Part shown: positions 1-49,388 of the stretch, one piece after another
Numbering within the stretch: the first letter of the stretch is position 1
How the letters are laid out: every line of letters starts with the position of its first letter
IMG/VR virus record: IMGVR_UViG_3300025610_000001
Source: a virus
Length of the DNA stretch: 64,000 bases
Direction: 5' to 3' (one strand)
The notes under the pieces: generated by a model
Database searches by the model: none
What the model saw: the letters and a program-made list of their open reading frames with translations, nothing else
What the model was told of the DNA's origin: nothing
Position numbers and translations under genes: made by a program

Positions 1-25
1 CATTCACGCCTATTACCATAAACCT

Positions 26-68
26 AAAAAAAAGGGGCATAAAGCCCCTAATTTTATCCGTTTTTGAA
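26..68 (-). terminator. Cassette terminator module T1: hairpin plus T8, with a conserved box
   Basis: Plus-strand A8 at 26-33 and stem GGGGC/GCCCC at 34-38/44-48. Box AATTTTATCCGTTTTTGAA at 50-68. Lies directly 3' of gene 87..335. The same module recurs at 445, 1124, 2747 and 4292. Confidence 0.6.
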
Positions 69-86
69 TCATTTTAGATTCAAATG

Positions 87-335
87 TCATTCATTGATGA
101 CACTAATGAGCAAACTAAGCATTGCGATTCTTTGTTCATTGAAGACACCCGAATCTTTGATGATTTCAAACATTGCCTTCAATAGTTCTTGTTCGCTACA
201 TCCTACGGGAATATAGCCATCAGTGCTTGCATCATAAATCAATGTCGCTCTATCCTCGATGTATTCGAGTACTTTTGCTAGTGTTTCAGCCGCTTTGATT
301 ATTCGTTCAAGTTGTGCATCATTTTCTGTCTGCAT
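87..335 (-). CDS. Small acidic protein, 82 aa, unknown function
   Basis: Track ORF 87..446 trimmed, because its residues LTICFGNL are the promoter motif read through. ATG 335 lies exactly 19 nt after the TATA box. Confidence 0.7.
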   Translation of the reverse strand: MQTENDAQLERIIKAAETLAKVLEYIEDRATLIYDASTDGYIPVGCSEQELLKAMFEIIKDSGVFNEQRIAMLSLLISVINE

Positions 336-354
336 GATTATATTATGTCTTTGA

Positions 355-388
355 ATATATAGTGGTAAATTGCCAAAGCATATGGTAA
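355..388 (-). promoter_or_regulatory. Promoter P1: 19-bp operator TTACCATATGCTTTGGCAA (388-370) plus TATA box CTATATAT (362-355)
   Basis: One of 7 near-identical copies. The box-to-ATG spacer is exactly 19 nt, implying a leaderless mRNA. Confidence 0.65.
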
Positions 389-444
389 GATAAAGATTGT
401 TCAGCATGAACACACAATAAAACATATAATCTGTTCTGCCCCAC

Positions 445-485
445 AAAAAAAGAGGGCAAAGCCCTCAATTTTATCCGTTTTTGAG
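445..485 (-). terminator. Cassette terminator module T2
   Basis: A7 at 445-451, stem GAGGGC/GCCCTC at 452-466, box AATTTTATCCGTTTTTGAG at 467-485. Lies 3' of gene 497..736. Confidence 0.6.
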
Positions 486-496
486 TCAAATGTGAG

Positions 497-736
497 TTAT
501 TCTTCTTCATCTTTTTTGGCTTTTTTGTACTTTTCAAGCCATACTCTCGCCATAAATGCCACCCATTTTGGCGACTGTTTGAGTTCTTCGCCTAAACAAT
601 GAGGACAAATCGCTTCTTTGTCATTTATCCACATCATCTCTTCTTCATGAGTTTTGCAATACATAGAAACCGAACCGAGTTTTAGTTTGAAATCTTCAGA
701 CAATTCGATACCCCCGCATATTCTTCCATTCTCCAT
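497..736 (-). CDS. Small Cys-containing protein, 79 aa, possible zinc ribbon, lysine/glutamate-rich tail
   Basis: ATG 736 is preceded by GGTGA 8 nt upstream. Contains C..C...CPHC. Overlaps the upstream gene by 41 nt in another frame. Confidence 0.55.
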   Translation of the reverse strand: MENGRICGGIELSEDFKLKLGSVSMYCKTHEEEMMWINDKEAICPHCLGEELKQSPKWVAFMARVWLEKYKKAKKDEEE

Positions 737-1016
737 CCCACAATTCACCGTTGAGAAACCATTTAAAGTTTTTTTGTTGAATATGCACATTAGGCAATCC
801 ATTAAGGCGTTCTTTAGTGGTGTTGGTGAAATATCCCGCATTTGTTATTAAAAGTCCTTCTTTCCTGTTTTGTCGAGCGATTAGGTTTCCGTGAAGGTAT
901 AGTTTTGTGGTGATGTCATGGGGGGAATCATCTAAAACCCTAACTTCGGTATTACCTCGCTTAAACGGTTCTTCAGTCCTAAATGCCCATATTGCTTCTT
1001 GCGTAATCTTTCGCAT
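696..1016 (-). CDS. Hypothetical protein, 106 aa
   Basis: Track ORF 696..1088 trimmed to ATG 1016, which is 19 nt after TATA box CTTATATC (1043-1036). Confidence 0.7.
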   Translation of the reverse strand: MRKITQEAIWAFRTEEPFKRGNTEVRVLDDSPHDITTKLYLHGNLIARQNRKEGLLITNAGYFTNTTKERLNGLPNVHIQQKNFKWFLNGELWDGEWKNMRGYRIV

Positions 1017-1035
1017 GATAATATGAGGGTTTGGT

Positions 1036-1068
1036 GATATAAGCGTAAATTGCCAAAGCATATGGTAA
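1036..1068 (-). promoter_or_regulatory. Promoter P2: operator 1068-1050 plus TATA 1043-1036
   Basis: Identical 19-mer TTACCATATGCTTTGGCAA. 19-nt spacer to ATG 1016. Confidence 0.65.
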
Positions 1069-1123
1069 GACGTATTGACGTAAGGCAATACAACAACAAA
1101 TAAACATTAAGTTGTCGCACCCT

Positions 1124-1164
1124 AAAAAAAGAGGCTTTCGCCTCAATTTTTGTCCTTTTTTGAG
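1124..1164 (-). terminator. Cassette terminator module T3
   Basis: A7 at 1124-1130, stem GAGGC/GCCTC at 1131-1144, box AATTTTTGTCCTTTTTTGAG at 1145-1164. Confidence 0.55.
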
Positions 1165-1177
1165 ATAACTTTGTTAA

Positions 1178-1519
1178 TCACCAAAGTTTTTCATAAATAT
1201 CTCGATAATGTTGGAACAAAATCTCATTGAATTTCATTTCATACCATTCGCCAATTCTTAATCTCATATAGAAGATTGGGTCATATCCAGCATCATCTTT
1301 TCGAATTCTGAGAATAGTGGAGTCCCTACCCAATATGATGACTAATTCGTTAAATTGGTAAAGCAGGTGATGGTTGAGTTGCTCAATTTGAGAATCGGCT
1401 AAATCAATGATTTTTTGTTTCGTAATGGATTCCCCGTATTGTTTAATTATATCATCAACCAATGATTTTAATTGTTCATCAGTTCCCAAACAGGTGTATA
1501 TTTCAGTATCTTCGCTCAT
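1178..1519 (-). CDS. Acidic hypothetical protein, 113 aa
   Basis: Long ORF with GGAGGAAG SD upstream. Third gene of a 3-gene cassette. Confidence 0.75.
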   Translation of the reverse strand: MSEDTEIYTCLGTDEQLKSLVDDIIKQYGESITKQKIIDLADSQIEQLNHHLLYQFNELVIILGRDSTILRIRKDDAGYDPIFYMRLRIGEWYEMKFNEILFQHYRDIYEKLW

Positions 1520-1657
1520 TTATTCTTCCTCCGTTTTGTTCATAATTTCAACGATTTGACCCTTAAGGTCTTTTGCTCGATTCAATGAAAGGATATGTTC
1601 AATAAAATCCGCTTCATCAATCGCATCCATTGTGATAGTTAGTTTAAAAGTTCTCAT
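1520..1657 (-). CDS. Micro-protein, 45 aa (MRTFKLTITMDAIDEADFIEH...)
   Basis: Not in the track because it is under 60 aa. GGAGGAATACCAATG SD. ATGA overlap with the upstream gene, and its stop abuts the downstream ATG. Confidence 0.5.
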   Translation of the reverse strand: MRTFKLTITMDAIDEADFIEHILSLNRAKDLKGQIVEIMNKTEEE

Positions 1658-1842
1658 TGGTATTCCTCCTTTGTTATTGCGTTTTGAACTGCTACTTTGT
1701 TAAAGTATTCAATAATGGCAATAATAGCCATTTCTTCTTGAAAAATATCAATTAGGGGTTGTATTTTTCTTACATCTTCTTCAGGCATGATTTCAAACTT
1801 CACGCCTTGTTCTTCTAATCTCTTCATGGGGTCTTGCTCCAT
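1654..1842 (-). CDS. Small protein, 62 aa
   Basis: Track ORF 1654..1953 trimmed to ATG 1842, 19 nt after TATA box TCATATAT (1869-1862). Confidence 0.65.
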   Translation of the reverse strand: MEQDPMKRLEEQGVKFEIMPEEDVRKIQPLIDIFQEEMAIIAIIEYFNKVAVQNAITKEEYQ

Positions 1843-1861
1843 ATTTACATAATACAATAGG

Positions 1862-1895
1862 ATATATGAAGATAAATTGCCAAAGCATATGGTAA
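1862..1895 (-). promoter_or_regulatory. Promoter P3: operator 1895-1877 plus TATA 1869-1862
   Basis: Identical 19-mer. 19-nt spacer to ATG 1842. Confidence 0.65.
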
Positions 1896-1966
1896 TGGTC
1901 AAGCAACACGGTTTTCGAAAGTAACAAGCGTTTATGCGTAGCATAATGACCATTACCTCAACGAAT

Positions 1967-2020
1967 AAAAAAACAGCCCAGAAACGTGCGTAAATGTTAG
2001 ATTGTACACGTTTCTGGGCT
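1967..2020 (-). terminator. Strong hairpin terminator: 14-bp stem followed by T7
   Basis: AGCCCAGAAACGTG (1975-1988) pairs with CACGTTTCTGGGCT (2007-2020). On the minus strand a T7 follows (plus-strand A7 at 1967-1973). Lies 3' of gene 2058..2597. Confidence 0.7.
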
Positions 2021-2057
2021 TAATGAGTAAAAGGGTGGCGCAACCCTGCTAATTACC

Positions 2058-2597
2058 TCAAGCATCCTCCTTTAGTGGCATATTGTAAAGAGGCTCGCCA
2101 CTCTCGCCCCATGTGAGTCCGTTTCCAAAGTGCGACTTTGTTCGATTGATTGCCTTATCGACAATACAATGCTGAATAAGTGCCTTTGCTGTGCCGTAAA
2201 TGTCATTCTTAGAAGGACTTTTACAGATTGATGAAAGAAGTGCTTGGTCATCTTCATCAAGGTTTTCGACCATGCGTGTAGCAATTTGATTCATGCGACC
2301 ATCAAAGTTTCGCATTTCTGGGCCGTAGTCTTTTGTTGGTTGTCCCTGTGAAGGTACATCCAAATCGAGTTCTCTTGCGACTGGTGAGTTATTTCGCCAA
2401 TACTTAGCGATTGCTTTCTCATCAGCAGTTTCAAGAGTACTGCGTTGGTTTTCAAAATAGTCTGAAAGGGTCAAATCCATGATTTGAGCCTTAAGAGCCA
2501 TATTGCTCTCAATCAGTCCATTGTCTTGCTTTGCTTTTAGACTAACATGAATTCGATTCATGCGTTCATCCAATTGTTCAAACGTTATTCCTGTCAT
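2058..2597 (-). CDS. Paralog A of a two-member family, 179 aa, unknown function
   Basis: Start chosen by GAGGTG SD and by alignment to paralog B (MTGITFEQLDERMNRI versus ELTIETLTDRMARI). The alternative near-leaderless start is ATG 2639. Shared core is AKYWRNxSPxARELDLDVPSQGQPxKDYGP. Confidence 0.7.
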   Translation of the reverse strand: MTGITFEQLDERMNRIHVSLKAKQDNGLIESNMALKAQIMDLTLSDYFENQRSTLETADEKAIAKYWRNNSPVARELDLDVPSQGQPTKDYGPEMRNFDGRMNQIATRMVENLDEDDQALLSSICKSPSKNDIYGTAKALIQHCIVDKAINRTKSHFGNGLTWGESGEPLYNMPLKEDA

Positions 2598-2656
2598 AAT
2601 TTTCACCTCAAATGTTGGGTTTTCGCTGGGTTGCGCCATTCATACTATGTTATTGG

Positions 2657-2690
2657 ATATATAATAGCAAATTGCCAAAGCATATGGTAA
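2657..2690 (-). promoter_or_regulatory. Promoter P4: operator 2690-2672 plus TATA 2664-2657
   Basis: Identical 19-mer. The predicted start site falls within 2 nt of ATG 2639. Confidence 0.6.
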
Positions 2691-2746
2691 GGAAAATCGT
2701 TTAGATACAAATAAATCGTTAAGAACGATTAACGATTGACGACCAC

Positions 2747-2788
2747 AAAAAAAATGGAGGCATAGCCTCCAAATTTTCATCCTTTGAG
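2747..2788 (-). terminator. Cassette terminator module T4
   Basis: A8 at 2747-2754, stem TGGAGGC/GCCTCCA at 2755-2771, box AAATTTTCATCCTTTGAG at 2771-2788. Confidence 0.6.
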
Positions 2789-2803
2789 TCATTGGGTCAC
2801 AAT

Positions 2804-3112
2804 TCAAAGCAAATTGTGAGTTCTGACCGTGTAGCGTTCACCCTTGAGTTTATCGAGGGTTTCCACAAGTAACTTGTACTTTGGATTTGGGACATCAACT
2901 TTGGTGATGATTCCAAAATCGTTCTCCATTGGAGTTTTGATTGTTGGTCGCTTCCAACCACCCTTCGATGAAAGATTTACGGCCTCCCATGCAATTGTCA
3001 TCTTGTAGTCATCGTTGAGCCGTAGGGCTTCATTCTCAGCCTTGTGTGGGTTTTGGTAGCGGCCCACGACCTTTTCTTTCTTCGTATCGTATATTTCATG
3101 CACTTTGAACAT
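2804..3112 (-). CDS. Hypothetical protein, 102 aa
   Basis: Track ORF. GGAGGC SD 6 nt upstream of ATG 3112. Confidence 0.75.
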   Translation of the reverse strand: MFKVHEIYDTKKEKVVGRYQNPHKAENEALRLNDDYKMTIAWEAVNLSSKGGWKRPTIKTPMENDFGIITKVDVPNPKYKLLVETLDKLKGERYTVRTHNLL

Positions 3113-3148
3113 TATTCTGCCTCCAGTGATGATATTATATTATTGGAA

Positions 3149-3180
3149 CTATAATGGAAAAATGCCAAAGCATATGGTAA
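3149..3180 (-). promoter_or_regulatory. Promoter P5: operator variant TTACCATATGCTTTGGCAT (3180-3162) plus TATA-like CATTATAG (3156-3149)
   Basis: 18 of 19 positions match the consensus. The predicted transcript has a leader of about 17 nt containing the SD. Confidence 0.55.
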
Positions 3181-3299
3181 TGATAAGCGATGGAAATAAC
3201 GTCAAGTATATCGCGTTTTATACGCAGTATAAATATCATTACCTCAAAAATAAAAAAATTGAGGGCATCCACCCAACAGAACCTACTAAGGCAGACGCT

Positions 3300-3562
3300 T
3301 TTACTTGATTAGACATTAACTAGTATTGCCTTTCTATCTATAACGTGTGCATGTTCGTGAACTGCGGGTTTCAGCCCCTAATGGTTTCTTATGGCCAATT
3401 ATACGCCATTGGAGATTAAAGGACAGGTAAGGGGGAATGCTTCAGTTATTGAATCAACTTGCACCACGCCAAACGGCTCTTGTTTTTGTGGCGAATCAAT
3501 TTTTCACATTCCCCCCTTCCATTGTATCATATTCAATGATACTTGATGAATAGGGCGACAAA
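3300..3562. other. ORF-free structured spacer; candidate ncRNA or complex 3' UTR
   Basis: No ORF on either strand. AAGGGGGAATG (3429-3439) pairs with CATTCCCCCCTT (3507-3518). Inner hairpin 3467-3493. GTATCAT/ATGATAC hairpin around 3524-3542. Visibly more G+C than the flanks. Confidence 0.3.
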
Positions 3563-3581
3563 AGCGGTTTCAAACCAAAAT
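3563..3581. repeat. Left arm of an inverted repeat flanking gene 3581..4126
   Basis: AGCGGTTTCAAACCAAAAT. Its reverse complement matches 4158-4176 at 17 of 19 positions, with a 12-nt perfect core TTTGAAACCGCT. Confidence 0.6.
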
Positions 3582-4126
3582 CAACCTTGTGTGTCCTCCA
3601 CGTTAAATGAAGGCATATCGTTTTCTCCCCATGACAAAGTTTCATTGTCATGGTGCGAGCGCACACGATTTCGTGCCTTTTCTACGAGGTTATGTTCAAG
3701 ACATGCCTCAATAGATGCGTAGCCGTCGTTTTTGCTTGGGCTTCGAGGCATAGCCATCAAAGCGTCAGCAAGACGAGAATCCTCATGGTTTTGGATTGAT
3801 TCAGCCAATACACCGAGAATGATGGTAAAAATACCATCCCATGTAGCCATACTTGGCCCATAGTCTTTTTTTGGTTGTCCTTGAGATGGAACATCGAGGT
3901 CTAATTCTCTTGCGATTGGGGAAACATTCCGCCAATACTTTGCAAGTTCCTTAGAATCTGCGTTGCTCATATCAGACTGATGCCAGTCATCAAGGGTTAG
4001 TTGCATGATTTGTGCCTTAATCGCCAAGTTAGATGGGATAAGGTCACTATCACGCTTTGTTTGAAGAGATGACTCGATTCGGGCCATCCTGTCCGTTAGT
4101 GTTTCAATTGTTAGTTCTGTTGCCAT
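3581..4126 (-). CDS. Paralog B of the 2058..2597 family, 181 aa
   Basis: Track ORF with AGGAGGAAAAAGTATG SD. Shares a long conserved core with paralog A. Confidence 0.8.
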   Translation of the reverse strand: MATELTIETLTDRMARIESSLQTKRDSDLIPSNLAIKAQIMQLTLDDWHQSDMSNADSKELAKYWRNVSPIARELDLDVPSQGQPKKDYGPSMATWDGIFTIILGVLAESIQNHEDSRLADALMAMPRSPSKNDGYASIEACLEHNLVEKARNRVRSHHDNETLSWGENDMPSFNVEDTQG

Positions 4127-4157
4127 ACTTTTTCCTCCTGTGTTAAAAGAAGGTCAA

Positions 4158-4176
4158 AATTTGATTTGAAACCGCT
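4158..4176. repeat. Right arm of the inverted repeat flanking gene 3581..4126
   Basis: AATTTGATTTGAAACCGCT, located in the 5' UTR of the minus-strand gene. Confidence 0.6.
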
Positions 4177-4201
4177 AATGCCAACTATCCTATGCCTTTG
4201 G

Positions 4202-4235
4202 ATATATAATGGGATTTTGCCAAAGCATATGGTAA
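4202..4235 (-). promoter_or_regulatory. Promoter P6: operator 4235-4217 plus TATA 4209-4202
   Basis: Identical 19-mer. Predicted leader of about 55 nt that contains the IR arm and the SD. Confidence 0.6.
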
Positions 4236-4291
4236 GATAAAAAGTTCTCCAGTAAATAACGCACTAAAGTATTGAACTTGACTCTTACCCT

Positions 4292-4329
4292 AAAAAAACA
4301 GGGCCAAAGCCCTGAATTTTCATCCTTTA
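4292..4329 (-). terminator. Cassette terminator module T5
   Basis: A7 at 4292-4298, stem CAGGGC/GCCCTG at 4299-4314, box AATTTTCATCCTTTA at 4315-4329. Confidence 0.6.
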
Positions 4330-4345
4330 TTCCAGTAGAATTGAT

Positions 4346-4588
4346 TTAATCATGTAATGTTGGAGAAAATGGGTCTTGTCCACCTACATTTTTTCCAGCA
4401 TCACAAGTTGGGCAAGTGAGAAACATAACTCCATTATCCCAGCCACTATGAATTTCATCTCCACAATCTGCACATAATCCCATTGTTGCACAATTCTCTT
4501 GATGGTCATAACATGGGTTACAGTAAAGGGTTTCAATTCCCAGAACTGTGCAGGTTTGGTTATTACAGTCTTTTGTTTTGCATTTCAT
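4346..4588 (-). CDS. Cys-rich, multi-CxxC metal-binding small protein, 80 aa
   Basis: Track ORF with 14 Cys, including CNPC, CADC and CPTC. ATG 4588 lies 19 nt after TATA box CTATATAC (4615-4608). Confidence 0.75.
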   Translation of the reverse strand: MKCKTKDCNNQTCTVLGIETLYCNPCYDHQENCATMGLCADCGDEIHSGWDNGVMFLTCPTCDAGKNVGGQDPFSPTLHD

Positions 4589-4607
4589 GATAATACTGTA
4601 TCTTTGA

Positions 4608-4644
4608 GTATATAGTATAAAATTGTCAAAGCATATGATTGTAA
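4608..4644 (-). promoter_or_regulatory. Promoter P7: degenerate operator TTACAATCATATGCTTTGACAA (4644-4623) plus TATA 4615-4608
   Basis: Same architecture and the same 19-nt spacer to the ATG. Confidence 0.55.
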
Positions 4645-4653
4645 ATTTATGGT

Positions 4654-4680
4654 TTACCCAACCATATGGCTTTGTTGCAA
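4654..4680 (+). promoter_or_regulatory. Plus-oriented degenerate operator copy TTACCCAACCATATGGCTTTGTTGCAA
   Basis: Faces P7 head-to-head across about 10 bp in the divergent control region. Followed by a T/A-rich tract. Confidence 0.35.
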
Positions 4681-4774
4681 ATTTTTATTTATTATTTATT
4701 TTAAAGAATAAACGGCTTATTAGTTAAGATTACATCACTTGGGCTAACATATTATTACAGAAGACCCGCTACAC

Positions 4775-4782
4775 TTATAATA
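4775..4782 (+). promoter_or_regulatory. TATA-like box TTATAATA 19 nt upstream of ATG 4802
   Basis: Same box-19 nt-ATG geometry as the minus-strand cassettes. No SD precedes ATG 4802. Confidence 0.45.
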
Positions 4783-4801
4783 TGAACGAACTTAGAACAA
4801 A

Positions 4802-5038
4802 ATGAGCCTGATGAGTAGTTCAGATACTCTTGAACAACAGATAAATAGAAATGTAGATACCATTAAATCACAATTAGAAGATATATTAGGTATCATTAAA
4901 GATAATACAGACAAAACATTATCTGAGAAAGAATTAAAAATACTTAAGAATATTCAAAGTAAGATACAAATACTTAAGAAACAAATAACTGATGTATTAA
5001 ATATTAAAACAAATACTAAACAAACAAAATTATTTTAA
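4802..5038 (+). CDS. Coiled-coil-like small protein, 78 aa; first gene of the plus-strand block
   Basis: Track ORF. Predicted to be leaderless. Confidence 0.6.
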   Translation: MSLMSSSDTLEQQINRNVDTIKSQLEDILGIIKDNTDKTLSEKELKILKNIQSKIQILKKQITDVLNIKTNTKQTKLF

Positions 5039-5120
5039 AAGAAAATAATAAATAAATAAAACATTTTTATTCTGGTTATACATAAAAAATAAAAAATAAA
5101 AAAACGCAAGTGCCAAAAAA

Positions 5121-5144
5121 ATTCCAGCCCAAATTTTGAGAAAA
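5121..5144 (+). promoter_or_regulatory. Intergenic repeat copy A: ATTCCAGCCCAAATTTTGAGAAAA
   Basis: 24-mer repeated at 5542-5565 (identical) and 5802-5825 (1 mismatch). Each copy fills the gap just before an SD-ATG. Confidence 0.5.
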
Positions 5145-5158
5145 AAGAGATGATTAAC

Positions 5159-5539
5159 ATGAATTGGCAAAATATTCTTAAAAATACTAAAAAAGATATT
5201 TTAGAGGGCCTTCATATTCTACAACAAAATATTACTCCAGACATTCTAGAAAAACATACAATGGAAAGAGGCATACATATGTTTAATATAAAAAAGAAAA
5301 ATGATAGTTTTTATTTTGGTCGTGTTAATCTGCGAATAAACGAACCTAAACCTGCTGGTTTTGGTTCTTCAAAAAATATCAAAAAACCTAAAGAAAAAAT
5401 TGTTTCTATAATTAAAGAACTTAAAGAAAGCAATTTGAAAAATTATTCCGATGAGAATGGAAAACTTAGGGCATTATTCGTAGTGATTACTCCAAACGTT
5501 GATGAACAATACCTAGAGATAGATATGAAGCGTAAATAA
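5159..5539 (+). CDS. W-tag protein (MNWQNILK...), 126 aa, unknown function
   Basis: Track ORF 5150..5539 trimmed. GATGATTAAC acts as the SD-like junction before ATG 5159. Confidence 0.7.
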   Translation: MNWQNILKNTKKDILEGLHILQQNITPDILEKHTMERGIHMFNIKKKNDSFYFGRVNLRINEPKPAGFGSSKNIKKPKEKIVSIIKELKESNLKNYSDENGKLRALFVVITPNVDEQYLEIDMKRK

Positions 5540-5541
5540 AA

Positions 5542-5565
5542 ATTCCAGCCCAAATTTTGAGAAAA
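5542..5565 (+). promoter_or_regulatory. Intergenic repeat copy B
   Basis: Identical 24-mer, immediately after the stop at 5539. Confidence 0.5.
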
Positions 5566-5576
5566 ACGTGATTACT

Positions 5577-5795
5577 ATGTGGAAAGACGAAATTATTAAA
5601 CGACAACCAAGAGATGTGCAACTAGAAAAGAATATTAATAGATTTATCAAAGAAATTGAAAATATGGAAAACAGATTATCAACAATGGATATGTATATTC
5701 CTTTACCTCAAAAAGCAGAAAGACCAATTAAAAAGGCTCTTAAGGCTTTAGAAGAGGCAGAAGAGGCACTAAGAGATGTTCTCGATGAAGTTTGA
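5577..5795 (+). CDS. W-tag protein (MWKDEIIK...), 72 aa
   Basis: The GTG at 5568 is part of the SD GTGATTACT. ATG 5577. Confidence 0.7.
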   Translation: MWKDEIIKRQPRDVQLEKNINRFIKEIENMENRLSTMDMYIPLPQKAERPIKKALKALEEAEEALRDVLDEV

Positions 5796-5801
5796 AAAAA
5801 A

Positions 5802-5825
5802 ATTCCAGCCCAAAATTTGAGAAAA
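5802..5825 (+). promoter_or_regulatory. Intergenic repeat copy C
   Basis: ATTCCAGCCCAAAATTTGAGAAAA. Confidence 0.5.
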
Positions 5826-5836
5826 GGTGATTAAAG

Positions 5837-6097
5837 ATGAAATGGGAAGATATATTAAAAGACACCAATACAGCAATAGCGAAGATTCTAAGTAAAATAT
5901 TTGTAAAAGAGTATATTCAAGAACTCTTAGCAAAGCCTAATCCGAAACAAGCGACTATTGAAGTATTAGAAAGTGAAATTAAATATACAAAACGAACTAT
6001 GGAAACCATAGTTCCTTATAAAATCCTAATAGAAGAACATCGAAAAAAGATTGCTAAATATGAAGAGGCTATTGAGAAAATAAAGAATTTAAAGTGA
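5837..6097 (+). CDS. W-tag protein (MKWEDILK...), 86 aa
   Basis: Track ORF with AGGTGATTAAAG SD. Confidence 0.75.
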   Translation: MKWEDILKDTNTAIAKILSKIFVKEYIQELLAKPNPKQATIEVLESEIKYTKRTMETIVPYKILIEEHRKKIAKYEEAIEKIKNLK

Positions 6098-6101
6098 TAT
6101 T

Positions 6102-6341
6102 ATGTGGAAAGACACTCTAAAGAAAAGAAAAACTAACTTAGGAAGAGGTTCTGGAGGCATGACTCCAGAAGAACTTAAAGAGGCTAAAGAAAGACTTAGA
6201 AGAAAAGAAAGAAGAAAAATACCTCTCAGCGAATTAAGAGAACAAGAAAACGACCCAGAATTTAGAGCAAAACAAGAAAGGGCAAGAAGAAGCGTCAAAG
6301 ATAAAAAAAGTGATTATTATGACATGGGAAGAAATACTTAA
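6102..6341 (+). CDS. W-tag protein (MWKDTLKK...), 79 aa, very basic
   Basis: Track ORF with GTGATATT SD. Confidence 0.7.
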   Translation: MWKDTLKKRKTNLGRGSGGMTPEELKEAKERLRRKERRKIPLSELREQENDPEFRAKQERARRSVKDKKSDYYDMGRNT

Positions 6342-6633
6342 AGAAAAATCCATATTTATAAAATTTCGTGAAGAATTAAATAATCTCCTGCGCCAAGCAG
6401 ATATTCTTGTGGGAAAAAAGTATAGCACTAGAGAAAAACAGTATGGTACTAGAGAAGAAGCATTTTTAAGGAAAGTTGATGCATTTTTGAACAAGTTGAA
6501 AGATAACGATATTACTGCTAAAACGGATAAAGGTCAAATTTTCTTTGATGCAAAAACAACAAAGAATCTAAAGGAATTGATTGAATTAGCAAAATACTAC
6601 AATGCTGGTAAAAGCGGAAAAGGTGATTTTTAA
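6319..6633 (+). CDS. W-tag protein (MTWEEILK...), 104 aa
   Basis: Trimmed from 6310. GTGATTATT SD. Overlaps the previous gene by 23 nt. Confidence 0.7.
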   Translation: MTWEEILKEKSIFIKFREELNNLLRQADILVGKKYSTREKQYGTREEAFLRKVDAFLNKLKDNDITAKTDKGQIFFDAKTTKNLKELIELAKYYNAGKSGKGDF

Positions 6634-6648
6634 AAAAAAGTGATTAAT

Positions 6649-6876
6649 ATGTGGAAAGATGAAATAATTAGAAAAAGGTCATTTACTCGACTTTATAGTA
6701 GAAATGAAAAAAGAGAAGCAATCAAAGAAGTAATGGATAGTTTAGAAGAAACTATCAAAATTGCTGAGAAAAATAATGAGCAGATGAAGTTGATGATTCT
6801 TCAAAGTTTAACATCGGCACGATTTGAATTACAAAAAAGATATGACACCATACAAGGCGATAGACCTTATCAATAA
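6649..6876 (+). CDS. W-tag protein (MWKDEIIR...), 75 aa
   Basis: Trimmed from 6640. GTGATTAAT SD. Confidence 0.7.
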   Translation: MWKDEIIRKRSFTRLYSRNEKREAIKEVMDSLEETIKIAEKNNEQMKLMILQSLTSARFELQKRYDTIQGDRPYQ

Positions 6877-6888
6877 AAAAGTGATTAA

Positions 6889-7122
6889 ATGTCAGAAGTT
6901 CCCATATTGTACTTGACTTCAACTGATACGTTAGAATTATTACAGAATTTAACAACTTTGCATAAAGACATCATACCCGATTTGGTGGAAAACATTTATA
7001 GGTATTCAGAAGATAAGTTGGAACTAGAGGACTTTGAGGATATGATAAAGGCTTTTCTTTACTTTACAAGTGAGGCATTAGATTCATTAGTTAGATTAAA
7101 TACGTTATTGCACAATCAATAG
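6889..7122 (+). CDS. Acidic small protein, 77 aa, no W-tag
   Basis: Track ORF with GTGATTAA SD. Confidence 0.65.
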   Translation: MSEVPILYLTSTDTLELLQNLTTLHKDIIPDLVENIYRYSEDKLELEDFEDMIKAFLYFTSEALDSLVRLNTLLHNQ

Positions 7123-7130
7123 GTGATATT

Positions 7131-7547
7131 ATGTGGAAAGGAATTGTTAAAAAACAAATTAGAAAAGGCGCAAGTTACGAAGAAGATTTCGTAAGTAAAC
7201 ATAAAGGTAAGCAGGATGATTTCGGTATTTATGTTCGTTCACCTGAAAATGTTAGCATTATTAAAGAAGAAGCAACATTAGAATGGACAGGTTCTATTGA
7301 AGTTTATTCTGCTGGCTTTGGTGCATTGAGTTCTTCATCCAATAAATTAACACTAGAAATAGAATATGTTAAAATGGGGGATGACGACGAGAAAGAAATA
7401 ACTAAAGAGTTCGTTTTTACTGGTAATTTTGAAGATGATGGAGGCGGTAATCCTGAAGATATTACAGTTGATATGGATTTTTCGGATTTTAACAATCCAA
7501 AGATTACAAAAGTGAAAGTAGCATATGAGGGGCGATTTAATGAGTGA
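7131..7547 (+). CDS. W-tag protein (MWKGIVKK...), 138 aa
   Basis: Track ORF with AGGTGATATT SD. Confidence 0.75.
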   Translation: MWKGIVKKQIRKGASYEEDFVSKHKGKQDDFGIYVRSPENVSIIKEEATLEWTGSIEVYSAGFGALSSSSNKLTLEIEYVKMGDDDEKEITKEFVFTGNFEDDGGGNPEDITVDMDFSDFNNPKITKVKVAYEGRFNE

Positions 7548-7695
7548 TTGGTCAAAACTTCTTAAAAATCAGAAAGAAGCGTCAAGCGCACAAAGCCTCG
7601 CTACTTTACAACAAAATCTAAAAGATGCACCAAGATATATTAAAATTGCATTAAATGAAATAGAAAGATACCTAATGGGTGAGAAAAATGTATAA
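7540..7695 (+). CDS. W-tag micro-protein (MSDWSKLLK...), 51 aa
   Basis: Not in the track because it is under 60 aa. ATGAGTGA overlap with the upstream stop. Confidence 0.5.
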   Translation: MSDWSKLLKNQKEASSAQSLATLQQNLKDAPRYIKIALNEIERYLMGEKNV

Positions 7696-8482
7696 GGACA
7701 TATTGAAGAGAGATAGAATGCCAAAGCCAAAAAGGGGCAAAGGCCGTCGTAGACAAACTGCTGAAAAAGACCGTAAAAAAGATGAATTTGGCGGTATGCA
7801 AATTAGTGGTGATGTTGAAGCAATTATTGGAAATAAAGAAGAGCGTGATAAAAGAGATGAAAGAGAAGCAGCCGATAAAAAATCTGGAAGGGTAAATCCC
7901 TTTGAAATAACTGCTGATTTTGCTCAAGCCACAGATGTTTTTGAAAAAGACTTTAATGACTTTGAAATATTTGATGAAATGAAAAAGCGAGTTAATGGGC
8001 TTTTTAAAGAGGCTGAGTTTTATTTTAAGCAAGGTGAAAAAAGGCAAAAGCAATTAGATACTGAATTTAAAGAAGCACTTAAGCGAAAACAAGGTATTGC
8101 TAGAGTAAGAAAAACTATTGAAACTTCAAACTATTATAGTCTTAAGAAATTCAATGAAAAACTAAAAAGCGAGAACATGAAAATTGGCAAAAAGAATTAT
8201 CCAGTTATTGAAGTTTTAGCAGCAATTGTGGTTGTTACTATTCAGGGTGATGATAAAGAAGCAACTGTTAGAGAAACATTTAATGACGCAGCCGATTACT
8301 TAGAAAGAAGGAATTTTGACCTTCTTACTCAAGGAGCGAATGGTTATAAGTTTTTGATAGATTTGGCTGAAAGATTAGGAATAGATGAATATGATAGGCC
8401 ACGCATGGTAGTAGGAAGAACAGGTAAATTTTATCTTGAAGAAGGACAAGCCACATATTTTGATTTAGACGATGTTCTTTGA
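7688..8482 (+). CDS. Tyr-variant tag protein (MYKDILKR...), 264 aa, basic N-terminal half
   Basis: Trimmed from GTG 7679. GGTGAGAAAA SD before ATG 7688. Confidence 0.7.
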   Translation: MYKDILKRDRMPKPKRGKGRRRQTAEKDRKKDEFGGMQISGDVEAIIGNKEERDKRDEREAADKKSGRVNPFEITADFAQATDVFEKDFNDFEIFDEMKKRVNGLFKEAEFYFKQGEKRQKQLDTEFKEALKRKQGIARVRKTIETSNYYSLKKFNEKLKSENMKIGKKNYPVIEVLAAIVVVTIQGDDKEATVRETFNDAADYLERRNFDLLTQGANGYKFLIDLAERLGIDEYDRPRMVVGRTGKFYLEEGQATYFDLDDVL

Positions 8483-11065: not shown

Positions 11066-11722
11066 ATGGTTACTCGTAAGCGTTGTGGTTTTTGCCAACA
11101 TGAAAATAGGGAAGAACTTGAATCCTTGTTAGAAACAGGGCAAGCAAGTTGTGATGCCCTAGATTTGCAGAATGATTGGAGAAGTGGAACTTCCTCCCAA
11201 CATCAAAGAAATCACATGGGGAACTATGAAATGGCTTCTAATCCTCGTTGTGTGCTATGCACAGACCCGATGAGAAAACACTATGAGATTGCGCTTTCGG
11301 AAGGTAATATCACAAGTGAAGCAGTTTCTGAGGCTCTAAACGTGTCGAAAGAACAGGTGCAACGGCACATGAAGCACCACTTGTCGCCATTGGTACAGAA
11401 ATCTGCGGCCTCCTTGATAGCGAAAAAGGAGGTAAATGAAGTTGATTTGTTATCAGCGAATGTTCAGCGATTAGATATGAAATTAGATGATGTATTCGCT
11501 ATGGATGATTTAGACCCAAAGGTGATTGATAGTCTCACCAAACTCGCTAGAGAGATTCGTGAATCATTAAAGTACCTTATGGAGTTTAAAGGCAAATTGG
11601 TTCATAAAAGACAAGATACAGTTATTTTCGCACAGATGCAAATTGTTCAAGAAGTGCTTGCACAGAACAATCCTGAGATTTGGCTTGACATTAAAAAAGA
11701 AATGCAGGAGAGATTACAATGA
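11066..11722 (+). CDS. Zinc-ribbon plus helix-turn-helix-like protein, 218 aa; candidate small terminase or regulator
   Basis: CGFC...C and C..C pairs. Segment ALNVSKEQVQRHMKHH. No W-tag. Codon usage is visibly less A/T-biased than the neighbours. Confidence 0.35.
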   Translation: MVTRKRCGFCQHENREELESLLETGQASCDALDLQNDWRSGTSSQHQRNHMGNYEMASNPRCVLCTDPMRKHYEIALSEGNITSEAVSEALNVSKEQVQRHMKHHLSPLVQKSAASLIAKKEVNEVDLLSANVQRLDMKLDDVFAMDDLDPKVIDSLTKLAREIRESLKYLMEFKGKLVHKRQDTVIFAQMQIVQEVLAQNNPEIWLDIKKEMQERLQ

Positions 11723-20043: not shown

Positions 20044-21414
20044 ATGGCAACAGCAGAAGAAATGAGAGAGGCTTCCGATAAATTACAGGAACTTGCTAGA
20101 ATTTCTGAAGAAGAAGAGGGTTTAAAGGAAGAACTCTCAGAAACGATAGGTGATGATATTAAACTATCCTTTCTAAGTACAGGCCACGTTTTATCAGAAT
20201 ATGAAGAAATTCAACAAATCTCAAAAAATCTAAATATGAATCTAACTGATGCAAGAAAACAATTAACTTATCCTAACGAATATTCTATTGATGGTCAATC
20301 AATTCCAGACTTAGTAAAGAAAATGCGTTTGGCTCGAAGAGAACTAAAAGGAGAACAGAAAGATAAAATGTCAAAGGCAATTGACAATATCATTGATGCT
20401 TATTCAGACCATGTTATGAAGTGTATTGATTCTATTCATTGGCTTAAGCCATATAAATATCCATTACTCAAAATGAACTTTAATGAAAAGCATTTGAGAA
20501 AAATGGAAAAAATGAAATCATTAGAAGAAAGAAGAAGCATTGTAGATACTCTTTGCAAGTTCTGGGAAAAGGATTTACAAATACAAGACATGGCATATTC
20601 TGAAGAATATGCAAAAATTTCAAAAGAAATGAAAATAACTAAAAAACAATTTAGAGATACTATCGCTAAAATTAATGTTCAAAAAATTACGAAGAGTAAA
20701 AGAGAACTTGTTCAAGAATTCGTTTTAAAATCTATTTGTGAGAATAGAGGTATAGGAGCAAAAAGAATACATGATATGATGCCTAATAATCTTTACAAGC
20801 ATACTAATTCAAATATGATTTCAAAAATGGTTAGAAGCATGGATGTTATCAATGACAACGGTTCTTATTACAAAGCACCGTCATTAATGAAGAAAAACAT
20901 TTGGGCTTATTGTGCTGCATTTATTGATTCAGATGGATATATTACATTAGACCGCAACATGAATCCTAGAGTCGGAATGGTTGCTACGGGCCAAAGAGGT
21001 AGAGTATTTATGGAAGAAATGCACAAGTCTATTGGTTTTGGTCGTATGCATCTTGACCAGAAATCACCACAAAATACTCGATTAATTAATCGTTTAAATT
21101 TCTATTCACAAGATGACGTTACAAATATTTTAACAAAGTGCTTGCCTCATTTCAGATTAAAGAAGGGTAATGCTAATTTATTGCTCGAACTTATTCGCAT
21201 GAAGAAATCATATAAGAAAGCCGATTGGTATAAAGACCGTTGCGATGAAATTTTCAAGTTAATGAAATGGGAGAACCATAAAGACCATGTTGGTTTTGAT
21301 TGGGCTAAAGAAAATATTTACTTAGATGATATTGCAAAGTTACAAGGTAATTGTAAAATGAGTCTTATGGATGAATTGGAGAATGTCGGTGGTATTGTTC
21401 TTAAGGAGGTTTAA
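20044..21414 (+). CDS. LAGLIDADG-domain protein (single motif) with a long N-terminal extension, 456 aa
   Basis: WAYCAAFIDSDGYITLDRN matches a LAGLIDADG motif and is followed by a typical core. The N-terminal 290 aa are unassigned. Confidence 0.6.
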   Translation: MATAEEMREASDKLQELARISEEEEGLKEELSETIGDDIKLSFLSTGHVLSEYEEIQQISKNLNMNLTDARKQLTYPNEYSIDGQSIPDLVKKMRLARRELKGEQKDKMSKAIDNIIDAYSDHVMKCIDSIHWLKPYKYPLLKMNFNEKHLRKMEKMKSLEERRSIVDTLCKFWEKDLQIQDMAYSEEYAKISKEMKITKKQFRDTIAKINVQKITKSKRELVQEFVLKSICENRGIGAKRIHDMMPNNLYKHTNSNMISKMVRSMDVINDNGSYYKAPSLMKKNIWAYCAAFIDSDGYITLDRNMNPRVGMVATGQRGRVFMEEMHKSIGFGRMHLDQKSPQNTRLINRLNFYSQDDVTNILTKCLPHFRLKKGNANLLLELIRMKKSYKKADWYKDRCDEIFKLMKWENHKDHVGFDWAKENIYLDDIAKLQGNCKMSLMDELENVGGIVLKEV

Positions 21415-48260: not shown

Positions 48261-49388
48261 ATGTATAATACATTAATAGGAGAAAAAAGAAGTCTTGTCT
48301 TCCCTGTTATGTGTAATGCTCATGTTAAATTATCTTATGCAGATAACATACCCGATACGAACTCAAACACAGATACTTCTGATGATATTGCTTATGGTCT
48401 TTGGGCGCATGAAGGTTCTTTTACCTTTGAAAGTATAATTACTCCTTATGATGTAAATGGATATGGTAAATTTTCAACAGGAGGAACAATACCAACCTTT
48501 ACTCCATCTAAGAAAATAATGCCTTCAAATCATCATCAAAGTTCTCCAAATGACTATGAAAGCCAACTATATTTACCAGTTGCAGGAGGAAGACTAACTC
48601 ATGAAATGAGAATATTTGATAATGATAACTTTAAAATATCTTTGTTAAATTCTACATTATTAAACGAGAATCAACCTGCTGAATATAAAATAAAAGCAGA
48701 ATTAACCATTGGGACGACTACTGAAACATTTACATCTGATAAAGTAATCCTTCCTAATTTTTCATATTATAATGAATATGAAACAAATCAGAACCATGTA
48801 AATAAAGAAGGATTTGCTCAATATAGATATGTAGGGGCTTCTATTATTGGAAATCATTCAGCAGGTGATACGGTCATTAACGTATTCGTGAACACCTTTG
48901 CGGTAGGTCAGGAGTTGTTCGTTTTTGATACTACAAATGGCTTTAGGTCAATCGGTACGATAGCCTCCGTAGGCGGAAGTAACATTACGCTATCAAGCGG
49001 TCTTCCCTTCGATGTCGCCTCCCTAAGCCGTGTGTTTTTCAAAGGCTTTGCAAACCCTTCTTACATAAATAATACATACCATGTAGCCTTTGTTCTTAAT
49101 GATAATGGCAATTCTGTAAATATATTCCTTAATGGTAGAATTGTCTTATCGTCTTCTCATAGCGTAAAGACAGCATTTAGTTTCGCTAGAACAGATACAT
49201 TTTTAGGTGCTAATGGGACACTATCAAAAGGAACGAGTTCAGCGATTACAAATAAACAATTTATGGGAGAGTTTCATGAATTATCAATTATTGATATTCC
49301 TAAATTAAAATTTCCAAATGTAAATACGCTATTACCTTCTTTAGATGAAACGCTTCTATATTTAAGATTTGAGGAGATTGATTTATAA
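48261..49388 (+). CDS. Tail/baseplate protein with a LamG (concanavalin-A-like) type C-terminal domain, 375 aa
   Basis: YHVAFVLNDNGNSVNIFLNGRIV...FLGANGT...FMGEFHELSIID matches the LamG-like pattern. Confidence 0.45.
   Translation: MYNTLIGEKRSLVFPVMCNAHVKLSYADNIPDTNSNTDTSDDIAYGLWAHEGSFTFESIITPYDVNGYGKFSTGGTIPTFTPSKKIMPSNHHQSSPNDYESQLYLPVAGGRLTHEMRIFDNDNFKISLLNSTLLNENQPAEYKIKAELTIGTTTETFTSDKVILPNFSYYNEYETNQNHVNKEGFAQYRYVGASIIGNHSAGDTVINVFVNTFAVGQELFVFDTTNGFRSIGTIASVGGSNITLSSGLPFDVASLSRVFFKGFANPSYINNTYHVAFVLNDNGNSVNIFLNGRIVLSSSHSVKTAFSFARTDTFLGANGTLSKGTSSAITNKQFMGEFHELSIIDIPKLKFPNVNTLLPSLDETLLYLRFEEIDL

Follow-up and report, generated by a model that had tools for sequence, protein, structure and literature searches.

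The 64,000-nucleotide stretch of DNA analysed here (the window) belongs to the IMG/VR virus record IMGVR_UViG_3300025610_000001, and its left end carries a 19-bp sequence that recurs ahead of seven small gene cassettes on the minus strand. The seven repeats are read here as the upstream halves of near-identical archaeal-type promoter modules, in which an element for a sequence-specific factor is joined to a TATA box, in the accessory region of a group B magrovirus. A probability of about 0.65 is given to this reading, under which the cassettes would presumably be expressed early in infection.

The 19-mer TTACCATATGCTTTGGCAA occurs on the minus strand in five exact copies (388-370, 1068-1050, 1895-1877, 2690-2672 and 4235-4217) and in a sixth copy with one mismatch (3180-3162), and these six matches compare with 0.02 expected from shuffled sequence. 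A seventh copy, TTACAATCATATGCTTTGACAA at 4644-4623, is degenerate and has the core ATGCTTTGRCA in common with the other six. The repeat therefore stands as the initial annotation described it, although alignment of the seven upstream regions extends the conserved block to about 55 nt, from CTTACC to ATCATG, which exceeds the reported 19 bp. An A/T box comes after every copy; on the minus strand these boxes are at 362-355, 1043-1036, 1869-1862, 2664-2657, 3154-3147, 4209-4202 and 4615-4608. In cassettes 1, 2, 3 and 7 the spacer from this box to the ATG (335, 1016, 1842 and 4588) is 19 nt and contains no Shine-Dalgarno (SD) sequence, while cassettes 4, 5 and 6 have longer leaders with the strong SDs GAGGTGA, GGAGG and AGGAGG, respectively; this division, too, had been recognised correctly at the outset. 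Besides its SD-led ATG at 2597, cassette 4 has an in-frame ATG at 2639, which lies 17 nt past the box and 36 nt from the CTTTG of the element. This is a leaderless-like distance, and cassette 4 may therefore also be leaderless. The motif CCATATG is similarly concentrated in this region, with 8 of its 12 window occurrences falling within 1-4800, where 0.9 are expected. An eighth related element, CCATATGGCTTTG, is found on the plus strand at 4662-4674 in the orientation opposite to the seven; it heads the structural-gene strand and is kept in every relative examined.

Most of the cassettes also end at a recognisable signal. Positions 1-8000 contain 19 sites resembling a hairpin with a T-run, compared to 4.7 in shuffles, and these cover five cassettes; a sixth terminator, that of cassette 4, was recognised from a 14-bp inverted repeat (stem 1975-2020). 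For cassette 6 only a weak hairpin and a T-run could be read off the sequence. In the other six cassettes the terminator hairpin is rich in G+C. The terminator regions at 23-71, 440-488, 1119-1167, 2749-2785 and 4289-4337 have an A-rich 5′ flank in common (for example CAAAAACGGATAAAATT ahead of the hairpin). This flank provides a hairpin and T-run on the opposite strand as well, so these are likely bidirectional terminators.

Comparison with relatives shows the 19-mer to be a compacted and asymmetric form of an element common to the whole lineage, CAAAG-N5-CCATATGG-N5-10-CTTTG. Four relatives (L012-L015), in which a neighbouring 363-aa protein is only 33-38% identical, were compared in their early regions. 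Each of these diverged genomes has 7-11 copies of CAAAG-N5-(A)CCATATGG(T)-N5-10-CTTTG, directly after hairpins, and zero copies in the other 11 kb of each locus; at 7-11 per early region, the palindromic site ACCATATGGT with its CAAAG/CTTTG arms is over-represented at promoters. Its core in the relatives is a 10-bp perfect palindrome centred on CATATG. In the window 19-mer, ACCATATG is joined straight to CTTTG and the left CAAAG arm is missing. IMG/VR viral contigs contain the strict palindrome form in 115 stretches, and many of these contigs are 85-97 kb long with several copies each, and a relaxed pattern of core plus box was found in IMG/VR on one contig only (L010). The initial annotation had called for a search for the 19-mer in host and related viral genomes, and the outcome was divided: the palindromic form is present in the 115 viral stretches, the exact 19-mer has no match in IMG/VR, and the palindrome is absent from Poseidoniales.

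The position of the element relative to the downstream gene follows a simple rule. Distance was measured between the end of CTTTG and the start codon of the first open reading frame (ORF) of at least 40 aa that begins with ATG. In the window this distance is either 36-38 nt without an SD or 53-94 nt with one, and when the four diverged genomes are included the distribution is bimodal, with sites at 36-38 nt that have no SD and sites at 49 nt or more that usually have GGAGG, GAGGT or AGGAG. In the relatives the palindrome also serves divergent genes, with 38 nt to the ATG on both strands. Across the IMG/VR sample (115 stretches, 978 kb, 866 unique oriented sites) there is a single sharp peak at 36-39 nt, with 21, 48, 58 and 20 sites at the four distances (147 in total, mode 38), above a flat background. 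SD-like sequences occur in 3% of this 36-39-nt class compared to 40% of sites with 40-60 nt and 56% of those with 61-130-nt leaders. The geometry of the 147 sites fronts at least 116 unrelated protein clusters, and its signals persist when each cluster is reduced to one representative.

Base composition in the 36-39-nt class is equally constrained. Position -1 is a pyrimidine in 92% (133 of 144 sites) and in 105 of 116 cluster representatives, and it is C in 17 of the 20 sites in the window, L010 and L012-L015; a purine occupies position -3 in 94%. Over the same 144 sites, -25 to -22 are A/T in 83-92% and -41/-40 are TT, and the window boxes, measured from the ATG, occupy -27 to -20. CTTTG is therefore tied to the core promoter: its distance from the box stays at 11-13 nt, whereas the position of the palindrome centre shifts by about 5 nt. 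The fixed distance from promoter to ATG makes a transcription start at the ATG the only sensible reading, and it is the strongest internal argument for leaderless initiation, which we infer to take place about 24 nt 3′ of the box centre.

These properties resemble those of promoters that have been mapped in archaea. In Thermococcus onnurineus the TATA box lies at -30 to -20, and of the leaderless mRNAs, which lack an SD, 94.9% show a pyrimidine at -1, with C preferred, and 94.9% start with ATG; they derive from single genes or the first genes of operons, while leadered genes have GGTG-type SDs (PMC5316973). In the GeneMarkS-2 survey the box precedes leaderless starts of bacteria by about 10 nt and those of archaea by about 22-26 nt, and all 11 of 11 Thermoplasmata genomes are of the archaeal leaderless type (PMC6028130). 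Because the absence of an SD, the C or T at -1 and the box position of the viral modules match these mapped promoters (PMC5316973, PMC6028130), the archaeal TATA/leaderless reading is well supported at the level of sequence comparison. The TBP/TFB-type leaderless promoters suggested in the initial annotation are upheld in this way, and also by the 147-site geometry and by the genome in which they lie.

That genome has the gene content of a group B magrovirus, and the virus would accordingly be assigned to uncultured Marine Group II archaea. Its plus strand encodes a caudoviral structural module with TerL, portal, protease, major capsid protein (MCP) and a tape-measure-like protein. None of the deposited phages is related to it at the DNA level, and the best TerL match, to Bacteroides phages, is 27% identical; the MCP has hundreds of relatives at 70-92% identity in marine metagenomes, many on 85-94-kb contigs. 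The same genome is present in several estuarine and coastal assemblies, one of which contains it as a 93.7-kb contig, and outside the window it encodes PolB split into two genes (556 and 307 aa), an RFC-like clamp loader, a three-domain ATP-dependent ligase, UvrD and a tRNA-Leu. Within the window there are a Cas4-like nuclease and an ERCC4+HhH nuclease that matches the archaeal models Hef and Xpf best, and there is no Rfam family and no tRNA.

Two genes embedded in the structural module are of particular value for this assignment. An 837-aa ORF at 29076-31589 (plus strand), in the middle of the module and directly ahead of the protease and MCP genes, contains an ATP-dependent DNA ligase adenylation domain at about residues 250-436. 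Between terminase and portal, the gene at 20044-21414 (plus strand) encodes 456 aa with a C-terminal single-motif I-CreI-type LAGLIDADG domain (PDB 3mx9, E = 5.6e-8; catalytic Asp intact), and its N-terminal 280 aa have no match; it is the structural-module homing endonuclease described for magroviruses. Split PolB, a structural-module ligase and a structural-module LAGLIDADG nuclease are hallmarks of group B (PMC5434244), and it is the match to these features that places the genome there: it combines a caudoviral structural module, into which a second ligase and the LAGLIDADG gene are embedded, with an archaeal-type replication module in which PolB is split. Downstream (3′) of the tape-measure-like gene, a 2190-aa ORF rich in S, T and N (49388-55960, plus strand) has no Pfam, PHROG or PDB sequence match and a single DSDGD motif at residue 1661. 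This ORF probably encodes a fibre or adhesin. Magroviruses are reportedly among the most abundant planktonic viruses of the surface ocean (PMC10160649).

A sequence of events can be proposed for the modules on this basis. Each module consists, in this order, of the upstream element ACCATATG|CTTTGGCAA, a gap of about 12 nt, the 8-bp TATA box (-27 to -20), a proximal stretch rich in A/T and a C(-1)/A(+1) initiator on the ATG. The CTTTG arm keeps a distance of 11-13 nt to the box on its upstream side and so occupies about -43 to -39. TBP, TFB and RNA polymerase of the host (presumed Marine Group II, Poseidoniales) would come together on the TATA box, and the transcript would begin at the A of the ATG or 1-2 nt from it, so that the mRNAs of cassettes 1, 2, 3 and 7 are leaderless. 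Cassettes 4-6 would obtain a 40-90-nt leader from the same promoter and be translated by way of an SD, and the transcription units would end at the hairpin and T-run. A dimeric factor on the palindrome would coordinate the cassettes, most likely by activation or recruitment, and the repeated cores also serve as homology points for cassette gain and loss.

We infer a dimeric, sequence-specific factor that coordinates all cassettes because the element is a 10-bp perfect palindrome in the relatives, is strongly enriched and is used in both orientations. The initial annotation had already proposed the operator of a dimeric regulator, and the palindrome in the relatives agrees with that, but the dyad it had drawn, TTNCCA-N7-TGGNAA, is not the conserved one, which consists of CCATATGG with the CAAAG/CTTTG arms. 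The word operator also fits poorly, since the element lies upstream of the TATA box, in an activator-type position for archaea and not in the classical operator position. Sites upstream of BRE (the TFB-recognition element) and TATA are where archaeal activators of the TrmBL1, SurR and Ptr2 type act, and this position therefore makes activation or recruitment likelier than occlusion. Spaced full palindromes go with weak A/T boxes (5.6-5.9 of 8 positions A/T), which is consistent with activator dependence, and compact elements, including all window cassettes, go with strong boxes (7.3 of 8). Neither protein first proposed as the binder could be confirmed: 20044..21414 is the LAGLIDADG homing endonuclease, and 11066..11722 (218 aa) has no detectable DNA-binding domain, with PHROG and PDB sequence searches negative. 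PHROGs likewise gave no significant match for 11066-11722, the cassette 6 and cassette 7 proteins (c6 and c7) or the 78-aa product of the first plus-strand gene, relatives of the c6 protein were not found in IMG/VR, and the Pfam, PHROG, PDB sequence and fold searches together returned no binder candidate.

Several observations weigh against the promoter reading or parts of it. The cassette terminators resemble bacterial intrinsic terminators. The pre-box tract at -32 to -28 is C-rich, unlike the A-rich BRE of Thermococcales, and an A-rich stretch is found at -36 to -33; the box centre, at about -23.5 to -24 from the ATG, is 2-3 nt nearer than the textbook -26/-27, although it is still inside the published ranges of -30 to -20 (PMC5316973) and 22-26 nt (PMC6028130). 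The transcription start at the ATG is a prediction from geometry. Among 57 small proteins, Pfam shows no helix-turn-helix, ribbon-helix-helix or Zn-ribbon domain, and the all-helical AlphaFold model of the early protein encoded by cassettes 4 and 6 (pLDDT 78) has no fold relative. The palindrome occurs 7 times in 185,579 species genomes, which by our own estimate is about chance, and not once in Poseidoniales, so that a host regulon on this site is not evident. The assignment of magroviruses to their host is itself indirect, with no culture, CRISPR or provirus link (PMC10160649). Finally, the contig of one relative was binned in a flavobacterial metagenome-assembled genome (MAG), Altibacter.

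An alternative that deserves some consideration, though it is unlikely, is that the element is the operator of a virus-encoded repressor that silences the set of cassettes, whether by shutting off early genes later in infection or as immunity, with the strong TATA boxes otherwise constitutive with host factors; SSV1 F55 and phage repressors with repeated binding sites would be models for it. For the element as an operator it can be said that the window boxes are near-consensus and should need no activator, its absence from the genomes of cells speaks for a factor supplied by the virus and not by the host, and one element is common to seven separately terminated units. The element, however, lies entirely upstream of the TATA box, whereas archaeal repressors of the TrmB and SurR type usually overlap BRE/TATA or the start site. 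The full palindrome of the relatives accompanies weak A/T boxes, which is the pattern of activator-dependent promoters, and no repressor-like protein was detectable by Pfam among the 57 small proteins.

Cassettes are also gained and lost at the repeats. L005, a 99.9% identical genome, has one extra cassette, with a 132-aa gene, between cassettes 7 and 6, and both junctions of this cassette are inside ACCATATGCTTTG; in L010 the cassette 7 module is kept and the gene behind it is unrelated. The L005 junctions and the L010 gene swap show that cassettes turn over by crossing over within the repeated terminator-promoter modules. In this respect the modules are functionally analogous, with an archaeal promoter type, to the promoter early stem-loops (PeSLs) of T4-like phages (PMC2839356, PMC4122927). 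Alternatively, the repeat could be mainly a recombination module and not a regulatory site, its terminator-promoter junctions being conserved for the cassette shuffling that they mediate, either in homologous exchange, as in the T4 PeSLs, or by a site-specific recombinase that acts on the palindrome, as at integron attC sites. The exact placement of the insertion junctions, the different gene behind the same module in L010, the diversity of cargo (at least 116 protein clusters) and the perfectly palindromic core in relatives would all suit such a role. A pure recombination site, on the other hand, would not need CTTTG to be held 11-13 nt from the box and 36-39 nt from the ATG, and no integrase or recombinase is detectable. 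Promoter and recombination roles are, moreover, compatible, as in PeSLs (PMC4122927), and recombination as the main function of the repeats is considered improbable.

A combined form, to which very little weight is given, would have the palindrome bound by a virus-encoded dimeric protein that both activates the cassettes and promotes exchange there, as in an integron-like system with built-in promoters. The LAGLIDADG protein of 20044-21414 is a conceivable binder, since it has the sole recognisable sequence-specific dimeric DNA-binding domain in the window.

Least probable is a bacterial host, in which the modules would be promoters for a modified host polymerase (T4 MotA-like) or for a viral or virion RNA polymerase (RNAP), with the 2190-aa ORF as a cryptic polymerase. 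In T4 the MotA box TGCTTtA lies about 12 bp upstream of the -10 element, and crAss-like and N4-like phages have viral or virion polymerases. ATGCTTTG lies 12 nt upstream of an A/T hexamer, which recalls a T4 middle promoter and serves as a lead, and the hairpin and T-run terminators, the 2190-aa ORF without known relatives but with its one DSDGD motif, and the relative's contig binned with Altibacter point the same way. That contig, NZ_NZTP01000027.1 (L020; 14.7 kb, from the flavobacterial MAG "Altibacter sp. EAC109"), is the only multi-copy cellular match of the palindrome and has the palindromic promoter elements aboard; it is about 97% identical at the protein level to the magrovirus-like locus L015, and it is therefore most likely a binning artefact, a viral contig in a bacterial MAG. 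The A/T box lacks the -10 invariants (A2, T6), and there is no consistent -35/-10 pair across the copies, in line with the initial annotation, which had found the spacing unfit for a sigma-70 promoter. A box 20 nt from a fixed ATG without SD and with a pyrimidine at -1 follows the archaeal rule, compared to about 10 nt in bacteria (PMC6028130). SD sequences (strict core) precede 28 of 88 window genes compared to 3.5% of random positions, with many more genes having AGGTGAT, and internal genes use GGAGG or AGGTGAT; such widespread SD use argues against a Bacteroidota host, since 90% of Bacteroidetes are non-SD (PMC6028130). With archaeal-type replication and repair genes in addition, no match to an RNAP family in any ORF scanned (a single DSDGD motif in the 2190-aa ORF is insufficient) and no match to a known family or structure for the large ORFs or small proteins scanned, a bacterial host is considered very unlikely.

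Known bacterial promoter classes were also compared with the modules directly, and none was retained. For sigma-70 promoters, whose hexamers lie 17±1 nt apart, no -35/-10 pairing is common to the copies, the total is not above shuffles and the box profile has no T6-like invariant. The spacings of sigma-54 promoters (-24/-12) and of the N4-type hairpin promoter do not fit and the stem is weak, as judged by eye, and the Bacteroidetes signals -33 TTTG and -7 TAnnTTTG would need a spacing of about 18-21 nt where 12 nt is seen (also by eye). The T4 MotA middle promoter has a similar spacing, but the -10 invariants are absent, and no motA or asiA family was found in Pfam and PHROG scans of the window proteins.

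The individual cassettes, all on the minus strand, are organised as follows. The cassette 1 promoter module (336..388) has the 19-mer at 370-388, CTTTG at 374-378, the box CTATATAT at 355-362, the 19-nt spacer and C at -1; CTTTG is 38 nt from the ATG and there is no SD. Its gene (87..335) encodes 82 aa, is predicted to be leaderless and ends at a terminator hairpin at 33-49 with a T-run. In cassette 2 the module (1017..1068) has the 19-mer at 1050-1068, the box CTTATATC at 1036-1043 and a 19-nt spacer, with a distance of 37 nt and no SD; its genes (497..1016) are those of a 106-aa Kyano_Gp96-family protein (696-1016) and an overlapping second ORF, with a terminator hairpin at 452-466. In public gene calls the cassette 2 ORF begins at the ATG inside the element (CATATG, 1061) and not at 1016. 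The cassette 3 module (1843..1895) contains the 19-mer at 1877-1895 and the box TCATATAT at 1862-1869, again with a 19-nt spacer, 38 nt from CTTTG to ATG and no SD. It leads a three-gene operon (1178..1842), in which 1654-1842 is predicted to be leaderless and 1520-1657 and 1178-1519 have AGGAGG/GGAGG SDs; the terminator hairpin is at 1131-1144.

Cassettes 4, 5 and 6 combine the module with a leader. In cassette 4 (2598..2690) the 19-mer is at 2672-2690 and the box TTATATAT at 2657-2664, with SD GAGGTGA ahead of ATG 2597, and the gene (2058..2597) encodes 179 aa, or 193 aa from ATG 2639, and is a paralog of the cassette 6 gene; at 1975-2020 its 14-bp terminator stem is followed by a T-run. Module and leader of cassette 5 (3113..3180) comprise the 1-mismatch 19-mer at 3162-3180, the box TTATAGTT at 3147-3154 and SD GGAGG, at a distance of 53 nt, and its gene (2804..3112; 102 aa) has a terminator hairpin at 2755-2771. 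Cassette 6 (4127..4235) has the 19-mer at 4217-4235, the same box TTATATAT at 4202-4209 and SD AGGAGG; the gene with its tail (3255..4126) divides into a 181-aa gene at 3581-4126 and an untranslated tail of about 320 nt at 3255-3580 with a T-run at its end. In the cassette 7 module (4589..4644), which is kept in L010, the degenerate TTACAATCATATGCTTTGACAA (4623-4644) is followed by the box CTATATAC at 4608-4615 and a 19-nt spacer. Its gene (4346..4588) encodes an 80-aa Cys-rich protein, is predicted to be leaderless and has a terminator hairpin at 4299-4314.

On the plus strand, the eighth element (4659..4694) consists of the compact CAACCATATGGCTTTGTTGCAA followed by a T-rich box at the head of the structural-gene strand. 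The first plus-strand gene (4775..5038) has the box TTATAATA at 4775-4782, a 19-nt spacer and ATG 4802, and encodes 78 aa; its geometry from box to ATG matches that of the cassettes, though no 19-mer adjoins it. A second intergenic repeat, ATTCCAGCCCAAA(T/A)TTTGAGAAAA, occurs on the plus strand at 5121-5144, 5542-5565 and 5802-5825 (0 expected), directly upstream of three consecutive small genes, and is apparently present in L010 too. Past the left edge of the window, a contig of the same genome (L007) shows a noncoding stretch of about 750 nt after cassette 1 (5320-6080) and a tRNA-Leu(UAA) gene at 6898-6984, about 80 nt upstream of which TCATTATATATCCAAAAGG corresponds to the box part of the module without the 19-mer.

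The gene family shared by cassettes 4 and 6 (c4/c6) has a further feature. Two paralogs are found in each of five genomes and are always leadered, and in 10 of 10 genes the leader is complementary to sequence 4-13 nt past the stop codon. The helices have 9-13 bp of perfect Watson-Crick pairing (mean 11) compared to 5.7 bp for 90 non-cognate pairs. In the window, 4160-4176 pairs with 3563-3579 (cassette 6) and 2622-2638 with 2036-2052 (cassette 4); the other genes are 4458-4973 and 6203-6709 in L012, 2954-3481 and 5588-6094 in L013, 3352-3870 and 5310-5816 in L014, and 3380-3919 and 4962-5468 in L015. The helix sequence is different in each gene, which provides covariation support for a helix that joins the 5′ and 3′ untranslated regions around the ORF. 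From the promoter geometry, transcription in the window is predicted to start at about 2637 and 4182, on the first paired nucleotides of the helices. The c4/c6 mRNAs may thus be end-paired "panhandle" molecules, a control layer separate from the promoter, and mRNA stability, translation control and processing are possible roles of the helix.

Two other features of these leadered transcripts were observed. In the relatives, c4/c6-type leadered promoters have an extra leader motif, AACCTTATyCGCC ... TAGTGCT with a hairpin, that is absent from the window versions (sites at 4339/6084 in L012, 4464/5476 in L013, 3240/5197/6624 in L014 and 3274/4847 in L015). The cassette 6 tail (3255-3580, minus strand) has no ORF, is slightly G+C-richer than its surroundings and contains a 14-nt inverted repeat (3426-3439 / 3507-3520); a search of 3200-3650 gave no Rfam match, and the fold is not significantly stabler than shuffles (z = -1.33).

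A full-text term search of two magrovirus papers found no mention of promoters, TATA boxes or this motif, and a literature search for CCATATGG with "archaea" returned unrelated titles only. An archaeal TATA promoter with an upstream regulatory palindrome is known as a type, as is a reiterated viral regulatory module; new are the particular element described here, its wide occurrence among magroviruses and its second use, as a joint for recombination. The analysis amounts to a first cis-regulatory map of magroviruses, with a promoter architecture, an upstream palindrome that recurs hundreds of times over the lineage and a clean division of the genes into leaderless and SD-led ones. It also provides independent evidence on the host, since the signals indicate archaeal and not bacterial transcription and translation machinery. 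In practical terms, the module architecture can correct gene starts, because some public ORFs begin at the ATG inside the element, and the element itself is a concrete bait for finding the regulator.

The modules share features with several known systems. Like archaeal BRE/TATA leaderless promoters (Thermococcus, Haloferax, Sulfolobus), they have a box 20-27 nt upstream, a pyrimidine at -1, the A of the ATG at +1 and an A/T-rich proximal region, with first genes that lack an SD and GGAGG/GGTGA SDs on internal or leadered genes. They differ in that the box centre is 2-3 nt closer, a C-rich tract precedes the box and CTTTG is present in addition at about -41. Archaeal upstream activating sites (UAS) include those of Ptr2 in Methanocaldococcus, of TrmBL1 and SurR bound upstream of BRE/TATA, and of GvpE. 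As at these sites, a palindrome or dyad is placed just upstream of BRE/TATA and is common to several promoters; unlike them, the magrovirus element is a viral one that extends over a whole lineage, and in the relatives it serves a pair of divergent promoters. Its CTTTG arm is at a fixed distance from the promoter, whereas the distance of the palindrome centre varies by 5 nt.

Reiterated regulator sites are also known in other viruses, such as the F55 sites at the early promoters of SSV1 and the stoperators and start-associated sequences of mycobacteriophages. The magrovirus element resembles F55 sites and stoperators in that one short site is repeated ahead of many genes in one virus, whereas those sites repress, and overlap or follow their promoters, and the magrovirus site precedes TATA. 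The PeSLs of T4-like phages (PMC2839356, PMC4122927) are bacterial sigma-70 early promoters with no sequence relationship to the archaeal-type TATA modules, so the likeness is one of analogy only. In both, a composite of terminator and promoter is repeated between small, variable, mostly ORFan genes, and indel junctions between close relatives fall inside the motif. The PeSL-like promoter-terminator recombination joint of T4-like phages thus has a counterpart in an archaeal virus.

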